In this document: in pieces, positions 839 to 47,369 of the stretch
Layout of the letters: each line of letters starts with the position of its first letter
Position numbering within the stretch: the stretch's first letter is position 1
Source: Escherichia coli
GTDB lineage: Bacteria; Pseudomonadota; Gammaproteobacteria; Enterobacterales; Enterobacteriaceae
Direction: 5' to 3' (one strand)
DNA length: 64,000 nt
Assembly: GCF_009931435.1 (NCBI RefSeq)
Contig: NZ_CP043414.1
Notes under the pieces: model-generated
What the model was told of the DNA's origin: nothing
Seen by the model: the letters and a program-made list of their open reading frames with translations, nothing else
Databases searched by the model: none
Translations under genes and position numbers: made by a program

Positions 839-1654
839 ATGGCGTTCAAATTCAAAACCTTTGCGGCAGTGGGAGCCCTGATTGGATCACTGGCACTGGT
901 AGGCTGCGGTCAGGATGAAAAAGATCCAAACCACATTAAAGTCGGCGTGATTGTTGGTGCCGAACAGCAGGTTGCAGAAGTCGCGCAGAAAGTCGCGAAA
1001 GACAAATATGGCCTGGACGTTGAGCTGGTCACCTTCAACGACTATGTTCTGCCAAACGAAGCATTGAGCAAAGGCGATATCGACGCCAACGCCTTCCAGC
1101 ATAAACCGTACCTTGATCAGCAACTGAAAGATCGTGGCTACAAACTGGTCGCAGTAGGCAACACGTTTGTGTATCCGATTGCCGGTTACTCCAAGAAAAT
1201 CAAATCGCTGGATGAACTGCAGGATGGTTCGCAGGTTGCCGTGCCAAACGACCCGACTAACCTTGGTCGTTCACTGCTGCTGCTGCAAAAAGTGGGCTTG
1301 ATCAAACTGAAAGATGGCGTTGGCCTGTTGCCAACAGTTCTTGATGTTGTTGAGAACCCAAAAAACCTGAAAATTGTTGAGCTGGAAGCACCGCAGCTGC
1401 CGCGCTCTCTGGACGATGCGCAAATCGCTCTGGCGGTTATCAACACCACCTATGCCAGCCAGATTGGCCTGACTCCGGCGAAAGACGGTATCTTTGTCGA
1501 AGATAAAGAGTCTCCGTACGTAAACCTGATCGTGACGCGTGAAGATAACAAAGACGCAGAGAATGTGAAGAAATTCGTCCAGGCTTATCAGTCTGACGAA
1601 GTTTACGAAGCAGCGAACAAAGTGTTTAACGGTGGCGCTGTTAAAGGCTGGTAA
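839..1654 (+). CDS. metQ: Methionine-binding lipoprotein MetQ (NlpA family)
   Basis: 271-aa ORF with signal peptide and lipobox LVGC; recognised MetQ sequence; RBS AAGGAA upstream. Confidence 0.95.
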   Translation: MAFKFKTFAAVGALIGSLALVGCGQDEKDPNHIKVGVIVGAEQQVAEVAQKVAKDKYGLDVELVTFNDYVLPNEALSKGDIDANAFQHKPYLDQQLKDRGYKLVAVGNTFVYPIAGYSKKIKSLDELQDGSQVAVPNDPTNLGRSLLLLQKVGLIKLKDGVGLLPTVLDVVENPKNLKIVELEAPQLPRSLDDAQIALAVINTTYASQIGLTPAKDGIFVEDKESPYVNLIVTREDNKDAENVKKFVQAYQSDEVYEAANKVFNGGAVKGW

Positions 1655-1691
1655 TTTTTAGGCTGTTTCCACAATTTGTAATATCATTCAG

Positions 1692-1720
1692 GACGGGCGC
1701 TTGCCCGTCTTGTCATTTTT
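1692..1720 (+). terminator. Intrinsic terminator downstream of metQ
   Basis: Hairpin GACGGGCGCttGCCCGTC followed by TTGTCATTTTT. Confidence 0.6.
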
Positions 1721-1771
1721 ACAAGCTCCTGATTCAATATTGACGTTTTGATCATACATTGAGGAAATACT

Positions 1772-2176
1772 ATGCGTGCTTTACCGATCTGTTTAGTAGC
1801 ACTCATGCTAAGCGGCTGTTCCATGTTAAGCAGATCCCCTGTCGAACCCGTTCAAAGCACTGCACCCCAGCCGAAAGCGGAGCCTGCAAAACCGAAAGCA
1901 CCGCGCGCCGCGCCGGTCCGAATTTATACCAATGCAGAAGAATTAGTCGGCAAACCATTCCGCGATCTCGGTGAAGTCAGTGGCGATTCTTGCCAGGCCT
2001 CTAATCAGGACTCTCCGCCGAGCATTCCAACCGCGCGTAAGCGGATGCAAATCAATGCCTCTAAAATGAAAGCCAATGCGGTATTACTGCATAGCTGCGA
2101 AGTTACCAGCGGTACGCCAGGCTGCTATCGTCAGGCTGTATGTATCGGTTCTGCGCTTAACATTACGGCGAAATGA
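1772..2176 (+). CDS. rcsF: Outer-membrane lipoprotein RcsF (Rcs phosphorelay sensor)
   Basis: 134-aa ORF, lipobox LSGC, Pro/Lys-rich linker, four Cys in C-terminal domain; recognised RcsF. Confidence 0.93.
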   Translation: MRALPICLVALMLSGCSMLSRSPVEPVQSTAPQPKAEPAKPKAPRAAPVRIYTNAEELVGKPFRDLGEVSGDSCQASNQDSPPSIPTARKRMQINASKMKANAVLLHSCEVTSGTPGCYRQAVCIGSALNITAK

Positions 2177-2880
2177 GCAGTTTCCAGTTCGAGCAAATAG
2201 GCGTTATTCGCTCGCCCTATAAAGAAAAATTCGCCGTTCCGCGCCAGCCAGGTCTGGTAAAAAGCGCCAACGGTGAACTGCATCTCATTGCTCCCTACAA
2301 CCAGGCCGACGCCGTTCGCGGCCTGGAAGCGTTTAGCCATTTATGGATCCTTTTTGTCTTTCATCAAACAATGGAAGGCGGCTGGCGTCCGACTGTGCGT
2401 CCACCGCGCCTCGGCGGTAACGCCAGAATGGGCGTTTTCGCCACACGCTCTACTTTCCGCCCTAACCCGATTGGTATGTCGCTGGTAGAGCTGAAGGAAG
2501 TTATTTGTCATAAAGATAGCGTGATTCTGAAGCTCGGCAGTCTGGATCTGGTCGATGGTACGCCGGTGGTAGATATCAAACCGTATCTTCCCTTTGCCGA
2601 ATCGCTTCCTGATGCCAGTGCCAGCTATGCGCAAAGTGCACCAGCGGCAGAGATGGCGGTGAGTTTTACCTTAGAGGTCGAAAAGCAGCTTTTGACATTG
2701 GAGAAGCGCTATCCGCAGTTAACGCTGTTTATCCGCGAAGTACTGGCGCAGGACCCGCGTCCAGCCTATCGTAAAGGTGAGGAAACGGGCAAAACCTATG
2801 CCGTCTGGCTGCATAATTTTAACGTTCGCTGGCGCGTCACCGACGCTGGTTTTGAAGTCTTTGCGCTGGAACCGCGTTAA
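2173..2880 (+). CDS. trmO: tRNA (adenine37-N6)-methyltransferase TrmO (YaeB/TsaA family)
   Basis: 235-aa ORF overlapping rcsF stop by 4 nt; recognised YaeB sequence. Confidence 0.9.
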   Translation: MSSFQFEQIGVIRSPYKEKFAVPRQPGLVKSANGELHLIAPYNQADAVRGLEAFSHLWILFVFHQTMEGGWRPTVRPPRLGGNARMGVFATRSTFRPNPIGMSLVELKEVICHKDSVILKLGSLDLVDGTPVVDIKPYLPFAESLPDASASYAQSAPAAEMAVSFTLEVEKQLLTLEKRYPQLTLFIREVLAQDPRPAYRKGEETGKTYAVWLHNFNVRWRVTDAGFEVFALEPR

Positions 2881-2990
2881 ATTCGCGCCCTTCTCTTTTG
2901 ACATTTCTTTTGCACTGGTAAACTAAATCACTTTTTTTGTCCCAGGCTCGCCTTGAGCCTGCTCTACCTTCCAACTGGAACCGTAACAAC

Positions 2991-4709
2991 ATGCGTACTA
3001 GCCAATACCTGCTCTCCACTCTTAAGGAGACACCTGCCGACGCCGAGGTGATCAGCCATCAGCTGATGTTGCGCGCCGGGATGATCCGCAAGCTGGCCTC
3101 CGGGTTATACACCTGGCTGCCGACCGGCGTGCGCGTTCTGAAAAAAGTCGAAAACATCGTGCGTGAAGAGATGAACAACGCCGGTGCGATCGAGGTGTTA
3201 ATGCCGGTGGTTCAGCCATCTGAACTGTGGCAAGAGAGTGGTCGTTGGGAACAGTATGGCCCGGAATTGCTGCGTATTGCTGACCGTGGTGACCGTCCGT
3301 TCGTACTTGGCCCAACTCATGAAGAAGTGATTACCGACCTGATTCGTAACGAGCTGAGCTCTTACAAACAGCTGCCGCTGAACTTCTATCAGATCCAGAC
3401 CAAGTTCCGTGATGAAGTGCGCCCGCGTTTCGGCGTCATGCGTTCCCGCGAATTCCTGATGAAAGATGCTTACTCTTTCCATACCTCTCAGGAATCCCTG
3501 CAGGAAACCTACGATGCAATGTATGCGGCCTACAGCAAAATCTTCAGCCGCATGGGGCTGGATTTCCGCGCCGTACAGGCCGACACCGGTTCTATCGGCG
3601 GTAGCGCCTCTCACGAATTCCAGGTGCTGGCGCAGAGCGGTGAAGACGATGTGGTCTTCTCCGACACCTCTGACTATGCAGCGAACATTGAGCTGGCAGA
3701 AGCTATCGCGCCGAAAGAACCGCGCGCTGCTGCTACCCAGGAAATGACGCTGGTTGATACGCCGAACGCGAAAACCATCGCGGAACTGGTTGAACAGTTC
3801 AATCTGCCGATTGAGAAAACGGTGAAGACTCTGCTGGTTAAAGCGGTTGAAGGCAGTAGCTTCCCGCTGGTTGCGCTGCTGGTGCGTGGTGACCACGAGC
3901 TGAACGAAGTTAAAGCAGAAAAACTGCCGCAGGTTGCAAGCCCGCTGACTTTCGCGACTGAAGAAGAAATTCGTGCGGTGGTTAAAGCCGGTCCGGGTTC
4001 ACTGGGTCCGGTAAACATGCCGATTCCGGTAGTAATTGACCGTACTGTTGCGGCGATGAGTGATTTTGCTGCTGGTGCTAACATCGATGGCAAACACTAC
4101 TTCGGTATCAACTGGGATCGCGATGTCGCAACCCCGGAAGTTGCGGATATCCGTAACGTAGTGGCTGGCGATCCAAGCCCGGATGGCCAGGGTACGCTGC
4201 TGATCAAACGTGGTATCGAAGTCGGTCACATCTTCCAGCTGGGTACTAAGTACTCCGAAGCACTTAAAGCCTCCGTTCAGGGTGAAGATGGCCGTAATCA
4301 GATCCTGACTATGGGTTGCTACGGTATTGGCGTAACGCGCGTAGTAGCGGCGGCAATTGAACAGAACTACGACGAACGCGGCATCGTATGGCCTGACGCT
4401 ATCGCACCTTTCCAGGTGGCGATTCTGCCGATGAATATGCACAAATCCTTCCGCGTACAGGAGCTGGCTGAGAAACTGTATAGCGAACTGCGCGCACAGG
4501 GTATCGAAGTGCTGCTGGATGATCGCAAAGAACGTCCGGGCGTGATGTTTGCTGATATGGAACTGATCGGTATTCCGCACACTATCGTGTTGGGTGACCG
4601 TAACCTCGACAACGACGATATCGAATACAAATACCGTCGTAACGGTGAGAAACAGTTAATTAAGACCGGTGACATCGTCGATTATCTGGTGAAACAGATT
4701 AAAGGCTGA
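2991..4709 (+). CDS. proS: Prolyl-tRNA synthetase
   Basis: ORF track gives 590 aa from an upstream start; canonical ProS (572 aa) begins at internal [23 protein letters not shown]; class II aaRS motifs. Confidence 0.95.
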
Positions 4710-40216: not shown

Positions 40217-41734
40217 TTATTGTTCTACGGCCATCAGACGTCGGTATTCATCCCAGGCATAGAGGTCGGTCATACCGCTGATATAATCCTGCAGCAGGCG
40301 GCAACGGTAATAATATTCCCATAGCGGAAACTCAGGAGAATCTGACGGTAATTTACTGACAGCCTCGACATAGGCCAGCCGATGGCGCGTCGAGAGTTTG
40401 TGGAATAAGCGCGATTCAATAGGGAAACGTTTCACCCGTTCTTTTTCTACCAGTTCAGTAAAGTCTGATAACGACAGGCTTAATAAAGGGCGATAAATCT
40501 CTAATAATCCGCTAATGACCCGATAGCCCTGCAATTCAAGCTGCTCGACATCTGGATGGCTAAACACATGTTTTACAGCGACATTTTTATATAGCTTTAG
40601 AAGATCGCTGCATTCGCTGGCATCTTCCAATAATGCATGATTAAACGTTCCGGCGAAAATCGCAGGCAGATTATCAATAAATCGTTGTGCCGCGTAGGGT
40701 ACCAGTTTATTTAGGGTGTTTACCCGTAAATACATAAAAAACTGATCTTCCGTACTGCGGCTTAAACTATTTGAGCGTGATTTTTCCCAGGCATTTTCAA
40801 CCACCAGCGAAAAGAGCGAACCTTTCTCATGCTGGCCCCACGCTTCGTGCAAATGATGATAAAGCTGCTCAACGCTGAATATTCTTTTCTCTACCGCATC
40901 TTCAAGATCTGCCACACAATAGGAGATGTCGTCGGCAGCTTCCATAATCCACGTTAATGGAAAACGACTGTAAAGCGCCAAATTAAGTTCTTTACGCAAC
41001 CGGGCAATATAGGCTTCTTCAGAAAGATAATAACCCGGCTTTTTCATTAAATAGTGATGTGTCTCAGGCGTTTCACCACGCCACCACGCCGGACGAGTAT
41101 ATTTTAAAATACCGCCAACCTGTGCCCAGGTGAGATTCATCCGCATCAATGTATGCACCAGACGAATGCCTTGTGCATTCCCCTCAAAATGACATAAGTC
41201 CTGACGTATTTTGCGCCGCAGCTCGTTAAGCGGTTCTTCCCCGTCCCGTAAACGTAGTGCTGCCACGCTGCAGCGATCGTCAGTCAGAGGCTGGCTTTCG
41301 GCATCAGCCGGATACAAACGCTGGCGAAACCAGTCATTTATCGCCGCTTCGCCAAAATGGCCAAACGGCGGATTGCCGATATCGTGCATCAGGCATGACA
41401 TCTCAACAATACTTTCAAAAGGGCCGGTCAGTTCATCCAGACCATACTCTTCCAGTAATTTAAGCTCTTTCAGACGGCTTAAAATTTCTTTGGCGATGTA
41501 GCGCCCCACCTGCTGGACTTCCATTGAATGGGTAAGACGCGTGCGCACGGCGGCATTTCGCTCCAGCGGAAAAACCTGGGTCTTTTGTTGCAGACGACGA
41601 ATTGCCGGAGAGTTGATAATACGCCCGCGATCGCTCTCAAAGATTCGCAGGATCTCATGTTCGGTTTTAACGCCCTGTGGTGAACGGTAACGACGATGCC
41701 AGTTTATTTTTTTTCGGAAATCAATCTGTGCCAT
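40217..41734 (-). CDS. dgt: dGTP triphosphohydrolase
   Basis: 505-aa ORF with HD-domain motifs ([11 protein letters not shown]); recognised Dgt. Confidence 0.95.
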
Positions 41735-41817
41735 GTCCTCTCCCGCGTGAGAAATACGCTTCCCCGTAAGCGCATGGTAAACTATGCCTTCAAATCGGGC
41801 TTATCGCGAGTAAATCT

Positions 41818-42516
41818 ATGAAAATCGGCATCATTGGTGCAATGGAAGAAGAAGTTACGCTGCTGCGTGACAAAATCGAAAACCGCCAAACTATCAGTCT
41901 GGGCGGTTGCGAAATCTATACCGGCCAACTGAATGGAACCGAAGTTGCGCTTCTGAAATCGGGCATCGGTAAAGTCGCTGCGGCACTGGGTGCAACTCTG
42001 CTGTTGGAACACTGCAAGCCAGATGTGATTATTAACACCGGTTCTGCCGGTGGCCTGGCGCCAACGCTGAAAGTGGGCGATATCGTTGTCTCGGACGAAG
42101 CACGTTATCACGACGCGGATGTCACGGCATTTGGTTACGAATACGGTCAGTTACCTGGCTGCCCGGCTGGCTTCAAAGCTGACGATAAACTGATCGCTGC
42201 CGCTGAGGCCTGCATTGCCGAACTGAATCTTAACGCTGTACGTGGCCTGATTGTCAGCGGCGACGCTTTCATCAACGGTTCTGTTGGCCTGGCGAAAATC
42301 CGCCACAACTTCCCGCAGGCCATTGCTGTAGAGATGGAAGCGACGGCAATCGCTCATGTCTGCCACAATTTTAACGTCCCGTTTGTTGTCGTACGCGCCA
42401 TCTCCGACGTGGCCGATCAACAGTCTCATCTTAGCTTCGATGAGTTCCTGGCTGTTGCTGCTAAACAGTCCAGCCTGATGGTTGAGTCACTGGTGCAGAA
42501 ACTGGCACATGGCTAA
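41818..42516 (+). CDS. mtnN: 5'-methylthioadenosine/S-adenosylhomocysteine nucleosidase
   Basis: 232-aa [27 protein letters not shown]...; recognised Mtn/Pfs. Confidence 0.95.
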
Positions 42517-43309
42517 GTCACTGTTCAGGGCGCTGGTCGCCCTGTCTTTTCTCGCCCCTCTGTGGCTCAACGCCGCACCGCGCGTCATCACGCTTTCACC
42601 CGCCAACACTGAACTTGCTTTTGCCGCCGGGATCACGCCGGTTGGGGTCAGCAGTTATTCCGACTACCCTCCACAAGCGCAAAAGATTGAGCAGGTTTCA
42701 ACCTGGCAGGGGATGAATCTCGAACGCATTGTGGCCCTTAAACCCGATCTGGTGATTGCCTGGCGTGGAGGTAATGCCGAGCGGCAGGTTGGCCAGTTAG
42801 CTTCGCTGGGAATAAAAGTGATGTGGGTCGATGCGACAAGCATTGAACAAATTGCCAATGCGTTACGTCAACTGGCCCCCTGGAGTCCACAACCAGACAA
42901 GGCCGAACAAGCCGCACAATCCCTGCTGGACCAGTACGCACAATTGAAAGCGCAATATGCTGATAAACCTAAAAAACGTGTTTTTCTGCAATTCGGCATT
43001 AATCCGCCATTTACCAGTGGAAAAGAGTCGATTCAAAACCAGGTACTCGAAGTTTGTGGCGGAGAAAACATCTTTAAAGACAGCCGGGTTCCCTGGCCGC
43101 AAGTTAGCCGCGAACAGGTGTTAGCACGCGCGCCACAGGCGATTGTCATTACAGGCGGACCGGACCAAATTCCTAAAATCAAACAATACTGGGGTGAACA
43201 GCTCAAAATTCCCGTTATTCCTCTCACGAGTGACTGGTTTGAACGTGCAAGCCCACGTATTATCCTCGCTGCACAACAGCTCTGTAATGCGCTTTCACAG
43301 GTAGATTAG
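42509..43309 (+). CDS. btuF: Vitamin B12-binding periplasmic protein BtuF
   Basis: 266 aa from [26 protein letters not shown]...; start overlaps mtn stop by 8 nt. Confidence 0.93.
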
Positions 43310-43346
43310 CGCCTGATCTTTTCAGGTGCTCAGTGGGGATTGAACA

Positions 43347-43970
43347 ATGCTCGTCTATTGGCTGGATATAGTCGGCACAGCGGTATTTGCCATCTCCGGC
43401 GTTTTGTTAGCCGGAAAATTGCGTATGGACCCTTTTGGTGTTCTGGTACTGGGCGTGGTTACCGCAGTAGGCGGCGGGACAATTCGCGACATGGCGCTGG
43501 ATCACGGCCCGGTCTTTTGGGTGAAAGATCCCACCGATCTGGTTGTTGCAATGGTGACCAGCATGCTGACGATCGTGCTGGTGCGCCAGCCAAGACGCTT
43601 ACCGAAATGGATGTTGCCGGTGCTGGATGCCGTTGGTCTGGCGGTGTTTGTCGGCATTGGCGTGAATAAAGCCTTTAATGCGGAAGCCGGTCCGTTAATC
43701 GCGGTTTGTATGGGCGTCATTACTGGCGTTGGCGGCGGGATCATTCGTGATGTACTGGCCCGCGAAATCCCCATGATTTTACGCACAGAAATCTACGCAA
43801 CGGCCTGTATTATCGGCGGTATTGTCCACGCTACGGCTTATTACACATTTTCCGTACCACTGGAAACAGCCAGTATGATGGGCATGGTCGTGACGCTATT
43901 GATTCGGCTGGCGGCTATTCGTTGGCATCTTAAGCTACCGACGTTTGCGCTGGATGAGAATGGGCGTTGA
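43347..43970 (+). CDS. yadS: UPF0126 inner-membrane protein YadS
   Basis: 207-aa hydrophobic ORF with two copies of a G-G-G-x-I-R-D motif (internal duplication). Confidence 0.88.
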   Translation: MLVYWLDIVGTAVFAISGVLLAGKLRMDPFGVLVLGVVTAVGGGTIRDMALDHGPVFWVKDPTDLVVAMVTSMLTIVLVRQPRRLPKWMLPVLDAVGLAVFVGIGVNKAFNAEAGPLIAVCMGVITGVGGGIIRDVLAREIPMILRTEIYATACIIGGIVHATAYYTFSVPLETASMMGMVVTLLIRLAAIRWHLKLPTFALDENGR

Positions 43971-43980
43971 AGAGAGAAGA

Positions 43981-44006
43981 TGTGCCGGATAGTTTATCCG
44001 GCACAT
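43981..44006. terminator. Bidirectional terminator between convergent yadS and erpA
   Basis: Perfect hairpin GTGCCGGATAgtttATCCGGCAC. Confidence 0.65.
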
Positions 44007-44016
44007 GAACAACAGA

Positions 44017-44361
44017 TTAGATGCTGAAGGAAGAACCGCAACCGCAGGTGCTTTTCGCGTTCGGGTTGGTCACGATGAAACGAGAACCTTCCAGACCTTC
44101 GGTATAGTCAACGGAACCGCCGACCAGATATTGCAGGCTCATCGGGTCAACCACCAGGCCAACGCCCTGTTTTTCGATGGTCATATCGCCTTCGTTCACC
44201 TGATCATCAAAGGTGAAACCATACTGGAAGCCGCTGCAACCGCCACCGGTGATATACACGCGTAATTTCAGATTCGGGTTATCTTCGTCAGCGATCAGGC
44301 TTTTAACTTTGTTGGCTGCTGCGTCGGTAAACTCCAGCGGCAGTGCTACGTCATCACTCAT
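44017..44361 (-). CDS. erpA: Iron-sulfur cluster insertion protein ErpA
   Basis: 114 aa from [20 protein letters not shown]..., C-terminal CGCGSSF A-type carrier motif; ORF track adds 11 codons upstream. Confidence 0.93.
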
Positions 44362-44442
44362 ATTTTGCTCCAAACGACATCGGCAATTGGGCAAATTCTA
44401 ACCCAATAATAATCGCCATTATCTAATACCCTGGTATTTCGT

Positions 44443-45882
<1,440 letters not shown>

Positions 45883-46088
45883 TCATACAAATAAGATGAC
45901 GGCATTTTACTCGCACGTTCCATGAAAATCCTTTGCAAAGCGTAATGTTTCAAATGTACAAAACTTTTATACTCTACGAAATCAGGATTGCACCAGCAGA
46001 AGCAACCTGACGTTTGACGAGTATTTAACTTGTTATGAATAAAATAGAATAGCAGCCATTCACTTTTTCTACGAATCAGGAACCCTCC

Positions 46089-47369
46089 ATGAGTAAGTCT
46101 GAAAATCTATACAGCGCAGCGCGCGAGCTGATCCCTGGCGGTGTGAACTCCCCTGTTCGCGCCTTTACCGGCGTGGGCGGCACTCCACTGTTTATCGAAA
46201 AAGCGGACGGCGCTTATCTGTACGATGTTGATGGCAAAGCCTATATCGATTATGTCGGTTCCTGGGGGCCGATGGTGCTGGGCCATAACCATCCGGCGAT
46301 CCGCAATGCCGTGATTGAAGCCGCCGAACGTGGTCTGAGCTTTGGCGCACCGACCGAAATGGAAGTGAAAATGGCGCAACTGGTGACCGAACTGGTGCCG
46401 ACGATGGATATGGTGCGCATGGTGAACTCCGGCACCGAAGCGACGATGAGCGCCATCCGCCTGGCCCGTGGTTTTACCGGTCGCGACAAAATCATTAAAT
46501 TCGAAGGTTGCTACCACGGTCACGCTGACTGTCTGCTGGTAAAAGCCGGTTCTGGCGCACTCACTTTAGGCCAGCCAAACTCGCCGGGCGTTCCGGCAGA
46601 TTTCGCCAAACATACATTAACCTGTACTTATAACGATCTGGCCTCTGTACGCGCCGCGTTTGAGCAATACCCGCAAGAGATTGCCTGTATTATTGTCGAG
46701 CCAGTAGCAGGCAACATGAACTGTGTTCCGCCGCTGCCAGAGTTCCTACCGGGTCTGCGCGCACTGTGCGACGAATTTGGCGCATTGCTGATCATCGATG
46801 AAGTGATGACCGGTTTCCGCGTGGCGCTGGCTGGCGCGCAGGATTATTACGACGTGGTGCCAGACCTCACCTGCCTGGGCAAAATCATCGGCGGTGGAAT
46901 GCCGGTAGGCGCATTCGGGGGTCGTCGTGATGTGATGGATGCGCTGGCCCCAACCGGTCCGGTCTATCAGGCGGGTACGCTTTCCGGTAACCCGATTGCG
47001 ATGGCAGCCGGTTTCGCCTGTCTGAATGAAGTCGCGCAGCCGGGCGTTCACGAGACGCTGGATGAGCTGACAACACGTCTGGCAGAAGGTCTGCTGGAAG
47101 CGGCAGAAGAAGCGGGAATTCCATTGGTCGTTAACCACGTTGGCGGCATGTTCGGTATTTTCTTTACCGACGCCGAGTCCGTGACGTGCTATCAGGATGT
47201 GATGGCCTGCGACGTCGAGCGCTTTAAGCGTTTCTTCCATATGATGCTGGATGAAGGTGTTTACCTGGCACCGTCAGCGTTTGAAGCGGGCTTTATGTCT
47301 GTGGCGCACAGCATGGAAGATATCAATAACACCATCGATGCTGCACGTCGGGTGTTTGCGAAGTTGTGA
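46089..47369 (+). CDS. hemL: Glutamate-1-semialdehyde 2,1-aminomutase
   Basis: 426-aa [29 protein letters not shown]...; recognised HemL. Confidence 0.96.

Follow-up and report, generated by a model that had tools for sequence, protein, structure and literature searches.

The closest described relatives of Escherichia coli YadS are the prokaryotic TRIC channels. Su et al (2017; PMC5477506) named the E. coli protein EcTRIC and state that GFP tagging fixed its orientation, and through the same paper the link between UPF0126 and the TRIC channels, together with a 3+3+1 duplication model, can be traced to an earlier bioinformatic study. The NYCOMPS TRIC project also used E. coli YadS as its seed. 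In the reported crystal structure of CpTRIC, the two inverted triple-helix bundles are related by a quasi-two-fold axis lying in the plane of the membrane and can be superimposed at 1.45 Å (71 C-alpha atoms). A trimer is described for both CpTRIC and SaTRIC, the solved TRIC pores are depicted as narrow, water-filled and electronegative, and no K+ binding site could be located in the crystals. The conductance given for SaTRIC is 159 pS, in the order K+ > Na+ > Rb+ > Mg2+ ~ Ca2+, and within the accessible portion of that paper electrophysiology is reported for SaTRIC only and not for CpTRIC (Su et al, 2017; PMC5477506). RsTRIC and SsTRIC complement E. coli auxotrophic for K+, and patch-clamp currents have been recorded from them. 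When EcTRIC was purified, its neutral-lipid bands were the same as those of SsTRIC (Ou et al, 2017). The yadS gene is already known along with its fold, inverted repeat and family assignment, all of which are published and recorded in RefSeq, and in its present form the yadS finding matters little. Two public annotations conflict, however, for this one family, whose 7806 cluster representatives at E <= 1e-3 make it very large: NCBI and PDB give "TRIC cation channel" and Pfam gives "Glycine transporter". E. coli is a convenient organism for settling this conflict, since it is genetically tractable and carries two paralogues, yadS and yicG.

We analyzed a window of 64,000 nucleotides from E. coli (contig NZ_CP043414.1); all positions refer to this whole stretch. 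The features at and around yadS were as follows.

41818-42516, + strand: mtnN, from the annotation, upstream of yadS and co-oriented with it
42509-43309, + strand: btuF, from the annotation, upstream of yadS and co-oriented with it
43335-43339, + strand: GGGGA, a Shine-Dalgarno-like motif 7 nt before the yadS ATG, read from the sequence and of presumed function
43347-43970, + strand: yadS (= EcTRIC) coding sequence, an ATG to TGA open reading frame of 207 codons (207 aa) plus the stop
43980-44006, no strand assigned: hairpin with a 12-bp stem in the yadS-erpA gap, from a terminator scan (-20 kcal/mol, z = -5.7)
44017-44361, - strand: erpA, convergent with yadS

The gene thus lies between btuF, which ends 37 bp upstream, and erpA, 46 bp downstream, where the initial annotation had placed it. 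The YadS protein was 100% identical to RefSeq WP_000964221.1, whose record reads "yadS: TRIC cation channel family protein". It scored 438.5 bits against the NCBIfam equivalog PRK10578 (cutoff 326), covering residues 1-207 of 207, and Pfam PF03458 matched in two stretches (E = 1.2e-45, 153.7 bits vs a cutoff of 23.5). Weak Pfam matches to DUF6962 and AzlD, under their own cutoffs, were set aside, and an antisense open reading frame at 43502-43786 was dismissed as a shadow of yadS. A 901-bp region containing yadS was detected in 5424 of the 5426 complete E. coli genomes, where RefSeq gives the product as "TRIC cation channel family protein", and the five nucleotide differences between this coding sequence and that of strain Z0117EC0005 were all synonymous. 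yadS belongs to the E. coli core genome and is under purifying selection.

Upstream, mtnN shares 8 bp with btuF, the 37-bp gap separates btuF from yadS, and a promoter scan found no sigma-70-like site on the + strand in 41500-44600. In a TraDIS paper (PMC11731830), mtn-btuF-yadS is listed as a transcription unit. Most likely, yadS is co-transcribed with mtnN and btuF. The hairpin at 43980-44006 has its T/C-rich tail on the - strand only and would therefore be primarily the terminator of erpA, possibly a bidirectional one. A stem-loop at 43298-43315, between btuF and yadS, was rejected as a terminator, being weak, with a 5-bp stem and an 8-nt loop. The scanned region held 5 terminator-like sites, vs 3.9 ± 1.9 in shuffles.

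The distribution of this gene block was surveyed by tblastn across YadS-like loci, namely the 80 closest genome loci (44-100% identity), which were found with a 16-sequence alignment and included no Shewanella locus. In three gammaproteobacterial lineages mtnN lay upstream on the same strand.

Enterobacterales: 28/28 loci, arranged mtnN-btuF-yadS
Vibrionaceae: 16/18 loci, the other two being truncated, usually arranged mtnN-cobD-btuF-yadS
Colwellia: 3 loci, a fourth being truncated, arranged mtnN-cobD-(rhodanese)-TRIC

In two Vibrio species, mtnN was followed directly by yadS with a 5-bp gap. As the outer flanks differ between the three lineages, the mtnN-(cobD)-btuF-yadS block is kept as a unit, and the conserved mtnN-btuF-yadS unit offers a practical starting point for studies of expression and phenotype. 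The yadS-like genes of Aeromonas, Pseudomonas, Alteromonas and other lineages had no linkage to mtnN. In Pseudomonas, the TRIC gene lies 13-24 bp after gor and ahead of a glyoxalase-family gene.

The structure of the YadS monomer was modelled with AlphaFold (AF2) on an alignment of 108 representatives; this MSA-based model replaced a single-sequence model, which was discarded at a pLDDT of 52.5. The model (pLDDT 96.6, pTM 0.91) contained seven helices, which group as follows (helix limits are residue numbers).

43350-43589, + strand: first repeat, the N-terminal triple-helix bundle (TM1 2-24, TM2 29-51, TM3 63-79), from AF2 and profile comparison
43611-43844, + strand: second, inverted repeat, the C-terminal triple-helix bundle (TM4 89-111, TM5 116-137, TM6 151-166), from AF2 and profile comparison
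43860-43925, + strand: TM7 (residues 172-193), the seventh helix beyond the repeat, from AF2, with R187 invariant

Because each bundle has an odd number of helices, the two are oppositely oriented in the membrane. Searched with phmmer against PDB chains, YadS matched every solved prokaryotic TRIC channel over nearly its full length: CpTRIC 5wuf at E = 2.8e-54, RsTRIC 5h36 at 9e-40, and the SaTRIC/SsTRIC chains 5wuc, 5h35 and 5wtr at 2.5e-31, 3.4e-29 and 2.1e-28, respectively. When the model was compared with the PDB by Foldseek, all 14 matches at E <= 1e-3 were TRIC channels, as were the next five (E 1.5e-3 to 2.1e-3), after which E rose to 0.065; no other fold in the PDB matched significantly. 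Prokaryotic TRICs aligned at a target-normalised TM of 0.88-0.95 and an rmsd of 1.4-2.1 Å, and eukaryotic TRICs (5egi, 6iyx) at a TM of about 0.6. Lys and Arg were concentrated in the loops predicted to face the cytoplasm (about 12 vs 2), which is consistent with the N-out, C-in orientation of YadS. Taken together, YadS, a protein of the inner membrane, almost certainly belongs to the prokaryotic TRIC (UPF0126/PF03458) channel family.

The initial annotation had rested its proposal of an internal duplication on two GGGxIRD motifs, one in each half of the protein and each set in a hydrophobic segment. The motifs are there, at residues 42-48 and 129-135, and both lie inside hydrophobic segments.

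43464-43499, + strand: motif 1 AVGGGTIRDMAL, residues 40-51, the glycine kink of TM2, from the sequence, with the kink role taken from the SaTRIC structure
43725-43760, + strand: motif 2 GVGGGIIRDVLA, residues 127-138, the glycine kink of TM5, from the sequence and the SaTRIC mapping

The GGG kink motifs fall in TM2 (42-44) and TM5 (129-131), as in prokaryotic TRIC channels. Across 108 homologues, G43, G44 and R47 of motif 1 were invariant and D48 was 96% conserved, while in motif 2 G130, R134 and D135 were invariant and G131 was present in 107 of the 108. GGGxxRD did not occur twice in any of 200,000 shuffled YadS proteins. BLASTP run directly between the two halves was borderline (21/43 identical, E = 0.07), and for this reason profiles of the two halves were built from the 108 diverse homologues and compared. 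Residues 2-81 aligned to the second half over 79 columns with 98.4% probability (E = 4.4e-15), so that the duplication is significant at the profile level. The proposed inverted-repeat topology of UPF0126/TRIC type agrees with the strong matches to solved TRICs, the seven-helix model and the TRIC-only Foldseek matches. The internal pseudo-symmetry, which was to be judged by structure, is borne out through the orthologue CpTRIC, in view of its superimposable bundles and the TM of 0.94 between the YadS model and 5wuf. The earlier structural interpretation of YadS is correct, and it is not new.

The functional residues of SaTRIC were mapped onto YadS by alignment to the PDB sequence and by reference to the published structure, and their conservation was scored over the 108 homologues.

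SaTRIC F20, YadS F14: pore constriction, 87% conserved
SaTRIC F106, YadS F101: pore constriction, 93% conserved
SaTRIC D99, YadS D94: cytoplasmic lock, 100% conserved
SaTRIC R139, YadS R134: cytoplasmic lock, 100% conserved
SaTRIC D140, YadS D135: cytoplasmic lock, 100% conserved
SaTRIC Y155, YadS Y150: cytoplasmic lock, 99% conserved

At the three-fold axis YadS has Arg139, where the matching residue of SaTRIC is Asn144. This Asn is described as binding Na+ or Mg2+, and the N144R mutant as still conducting. With Arg139 in place of a cation-binding Asn, the allosteric axis site is probably absent from YadS. The column is variable among the 108 homologues (N 32%, G 24%, R 16%), and hence the axis Asn is not truly family-defining. 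By analogy with the solved homologues, YadS would form a homotrimer with one gated, hourglass-shaped pore per protomer, bounded by TM1-2 and TM4-5. Backbone groups bared by the glycine kinks would keep water molecules in a file, Phe14 and Phe101 would make up two central constrictions, and a hydrogen-bond network of D94, R134, D135 and Y150 would lock the cytoplasmic end. Once this lock is released, monovalent cations would be able to pass, K+ somewhat more readily than Na+.

The initial annotation had called the substrate unknown. This holds for YadS itself in the sense that we found neither electrophysiology nor a transport or flux measurement of it in the searched literature; it does not hold for the family, in which homologues conduct K+ over Na+ in bilayers and complement K+ auxotrophy, and for which glycine has been proposed. 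The homologues with demonstrated conductance are only 32-40% identical to YadS. The E. coli hosts of the complementation assays, which are deficient in K+ uptake, presumably retain both yadS and yicG and are nonetheless K+-auxotrophic, which suggests that YadS at native levels provides no open route for K+ uptake. On this analogy-based reasoning, conduction of K+ or other cations is probably, though by no means securely, the actual function of YadS, and its role would most likely be that of a valve, under tight gating, for K+ or the membrane potential.

Other explanations of the gene and its function were weighed against this one. The suggestion that yadS is decaying or non-functional, or that its repeat and motifs are chance products of a hydrophobic open reading frame, could appeal to the half-against-half BLASTP, which reaches only E = 0.07, and has virtually no probability. 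It is refuted by the profile match between the halves (E = 4.4e-15), the absence of a doubled motif in 200,000 shuffles, the 7806 family cluster representatives at E <= 1e-3, the presence of the gene in 5424/5426 genomes with only synonymous differences, and the model confidence (pLDDT 96.6). More serious is the proposal that YadS acts as a small-metabolite facilitator, and more precisely that it transports or exports glycine, its inverted-repeat pore working with two symmetric gates instead of as an ion channel, and that K+ conductance in vitro is a side property; we consider it unlikely, while allowing it a real chance. By RB-TnSeq, five bacteria proved to need UPF0126 genes specifically for glycine utilisation (Price et al, preprint), where a glycine transporter was proposed, and a later review counts the glycine phenotype in 11 bacteria. 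One of these RB-TnSeq genes, SO1319 of S. oneidensis, was named yadS by the Shewanella annotators, and the Pfam name of PF03458 is Gly_transporter. An earlier bioinformatic study is also cited as suggesting metabolite efflux roles. Within YadS, an R-D pair and an acidic residue of TM1 or TM4 occur in both halves (D7-R47-D48 and D94-R134-D135), whereas archaeal SaTRIC has the full lock in its C-terminal half only, and two gates in YadS would fit alternating access. The genomic context gives a further hint: in a metagenomic context, tdh and kbl, which both exceed their equivalog cutoffs and encode the threonine-to-glycine pathway, are followed after 32 bp by a homologue (P0140) with 46% identity to YadS and then by an amino-acid permease. 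That context, however, comes from a single lineage and is one of eight sampled representative contexts, the other seven being unrelated and heterogeneous, and P0140 is a non-orthologous homologue. YadS orthologues show no such linkage to glycine metabolism, since three Rfam scans, reaching out to 3 kb, found no glycine riboswitch at 60 YadS-like loci, and clustering and Pfam searches (families with at least two neighbour matches listed) found no recurrent glycine-cleavage or SHMT family near the 80 loci. The Rfam matches near the 60 loci were only S15 leaders and CsrB/RsmB sRNAs, with no evident link to the TRIC gene. The narrow, water-filled and electronegative character of the solved pores also weighs against a glycine route, no glycine transport assay exists, and in the RB-TnSeq preprint the E. 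coli paralogue yicG had no phenotype while yadS was not reported. Our literature search returned no paper that reconciles the glycine reading with the channel data, and for SO1319, Psest_1636 and SO_1322 it returned nothing beyond the original preprint.

The neighbouring genes suggest a different role, in which YadS would serve its operon partners, for example by releasing 5-methylthioribose, the product of MtnN, or by assisting BtuF and CobD in the handling of cobalamin or cobinamide. The co-oriented block is kept in 28/28 Enterobacterales, 16/18 Vibrionaceae and three Colwellia loci, the gap between mtnN and yadS shrinks to 5 bp in two Vibrio species, and the E. coli gene sits 37 bp behind btuF with no promoter-like site of its own, in a listed mtn-btuF-yadS unit. 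Methylthioribose is excreted by E. coli, which is not known to have an exporter for it. Even so, such a role is very improbable. The linkage is missing in Aeromonas, Pseudomonas, Alteromonas and others, so that the block may be inherited gene order; Rfam scans found no cobalamin or SAM riboswitch at the 60 YadS-like loci; nothing in the biochemistry of TRIC pores ties them to ribose derivatives or corrinoids; and bacterial operons often join genes of unrelated function. A broader reading would make bacterial TRICs such as YadS gated small-metabolite facilitators, for which K+ conductance is not the cellular job and for which glycine, suggested by the transposon phenotypes and the tdh-kbl-TRIC context, or, in YadS orthologues, the MtnN by-product are candidates. 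The symmetric R-D locks in the two halves of YadS would then work as two alternating gates. We regard this reading as decidedly doubtful, yet if it were true, the name "TRIC cation channel" would mislead for thousands of bacterial genes. Gated cation conduction stays our preferred reading of YadS.

Set beside the known systems, the RB-TnSeq glycine genes SO1319, Sama_2463, Psest_1636, AO353_13110 and PGA1_c00920 resemble YadS in having two PF03458 domains. The glycine-utilisation phenotype is reported for these genes and not for the E. coli genes, and the context of SO1319, DUF2721-yadS-NTF2, was absent among the 80 YadS-like loci, in which no Shewanella was included. The E. coli paralogue YicG (b3646, 205 aa) is 42% identical to YadS over the first 151 residues and shares the family and the TM2 GGGxxRD motif with it. 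It differs in having Glu14 instead of the pore residue Phe14, FGG instead of GGG in TM5, and a different locus, dinD-yicG-ligB.

The eukaryotic TRIC-A and TRIC-B channels (C. elegans TRIC-B 5egi, vertebrate 6iyx/6iyz) have their overall fold in common with YadS (Foldseek probability 1.0, TM about 0.6), and in the literature they are trimeric with one pore per protomer, the design that YadS would share. Identity to YadS is 14-21%, and the lock residues are not conserved. Unlike YadS, the eukaryotic channels have a long C-terminal tail, PIP2 binding, less glycine-rich kinks and a location in intracellular stores.

The prokaryotic channels stand much closer. SaTRIC, SsTRIC and RsTRIC (5wuc-5wue, 5h35, 5wtr, 5h36), which are the proteins with measured K+/Na+ conductance or K+-uptake complementation, are 31-40% identical to YadS, have its fold (target-normalised TM 0.88-0.95) and share with it the glycine kinks, the pore phenylalanines and the D-R-D-Y lock. 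In contrast to YadS, with R-D in both halves, the N-terminal half of SaTRIC has no R-D pair (N13-S53-N54-Y70), and D64 of YadS replaces an N-half tyrosine found in 65% of the family. The closest of all is CpTRIC from Colwellia psychrerythraea (5wuf; PMC5477506), 51% identical to YadS over 195 residues and superimposable on the model at a TM of 0.94 and 1.7 Å. A protein encoded in one of the surveyed mtnN-cobD-TRIC loci (L059) shows near-identity to 5wuf over the aligned portion of that sequence. As CpTRIC occupies this Colwellia arrangement, it is the syntenic orthologue of YadS. The two differ at the three-fold axis, where CpTRIC has Asn and YadS has Arg139, and in their gene blocks, since that of Colwellia lacks the btuF present in E. 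coli and sometimes has a rhodanese gene inserted. They share the 7-TM plan of a 3+3 inverted repeat plus one helix, with its GGGTIRD/GG(G)xIRD motifs.

The gene order mtnN-(cobD/cbiB)-btuF-yadS, with all genes co-oriented, was kept in 28 of 28 Enterobacterales and 16 of 18 Vibrionaceae loci, as well as in Colwellia, and the outer flanks of the block varied among these three groups. In two Vibrio loci (L038 and L045), mtnN was followed immediately by yadS, with a gap of 5 bp.

Window 41818-43970: mtnN-(cobD/cbiB)-btuF-yadS block; also present in the comparison loci L003-L047, L050, L057-L059, L064 and L070

Within this block, the 3' end of mtnN and the start codon of btuF overlap by 8 bp (window 42509-42516), and translational coupling of the two genes is therefore suggested. 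ORF calling instead put the btuF start at an upstream TTG, 42482.

Across 6.6 kb surrounding the block (40347-46967), the window was 98.5% identical to a typical E. coli. Over the same interval, DNA of L003, recorded as 'Escherichia coli strain SCPM-O-B-8794', was 91.6% identical to the window, while its YadS protein was 100% identical; L003 probably represents a different species-level lineage of Escherichia. When 901 bp of the window (43200-44100) were searched against 5426 complete genomes, the highest identity was 99.2%.

yadS and erpA converge on a gap of 46 bp, most of which is taken up by a hairpin at window 43980-44006, with a perfect 12-bp stem, a folding energy of -20 kcal/mol and a z-score of -5.7. 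On the yadS side, the hairpin was without a canonical U-tract. It looks like the terminator of erpA, because its pyrimidine-rich tail is found only on the minus strand. RefSeq annotation, transferred here from L001, adds two genes: yadX, downstream of clcA, and the tiny yadW (21 aa), which overlaps the start of erpA.

Window 44354-44419, minus strand: yadW, annotation transferred from locus L001

TRIC genes were also found in other genomic contexts. In two metagenomic contigs (L085 and L086), tdh and kbl (threonine to glycine) are followed after 32 bp by a YadS homologue with 46% identity. The next gene encodes a fusion of an amino-acid permease with a Usp domain. No other glycine-linked context was found. 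In Pseudomonas and Stutzerimonas, gor (glutathione reductase) lies 13–24 bp upstream of the TRIC gene, and a candidate glyoxalase-family gene lies downstream of it in L069, L076 and L078; glyoxalase Pfam matches numbered five, a tally pooled over all neighbours rather than per locus. Whether these neighbours have anything to do with the physiology of electrophiles or of K+ efflux is a matter of speculation. In Aliagarivorans and Agarivorans, two tandem CsrB/RsmB-family sRNA genes are located 3' of the TRIC gene.

L085 1176-4033 and L086 1749-4606: tdh-kbl-TRIC-permease context
L067, L069, L073, L076 and L079, about 1500-4600 in each: gor-TRIC context
L053 4726-5680 and L061 3788-5510: tandem CsrB/RsmB-family sRNA genes

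L002 8875-9489: yicG of E. coli K-12
Window 43761-43763: codon of YadS residue R139

The paralogue YicG carries Glu14 in place of the pore-constricting Phe of YadS and 87% of the family, and FGG instead of GGG in TM5. These two differences hint that YicG differs in selectivity. At the three-fold-axis position, where 32% of the family has N, 24% has G and 16% has R, YadS has Arg139, whereas the archaeal channel SaTRIC has Asn144, at which Na+ or Mg2+ is bound.
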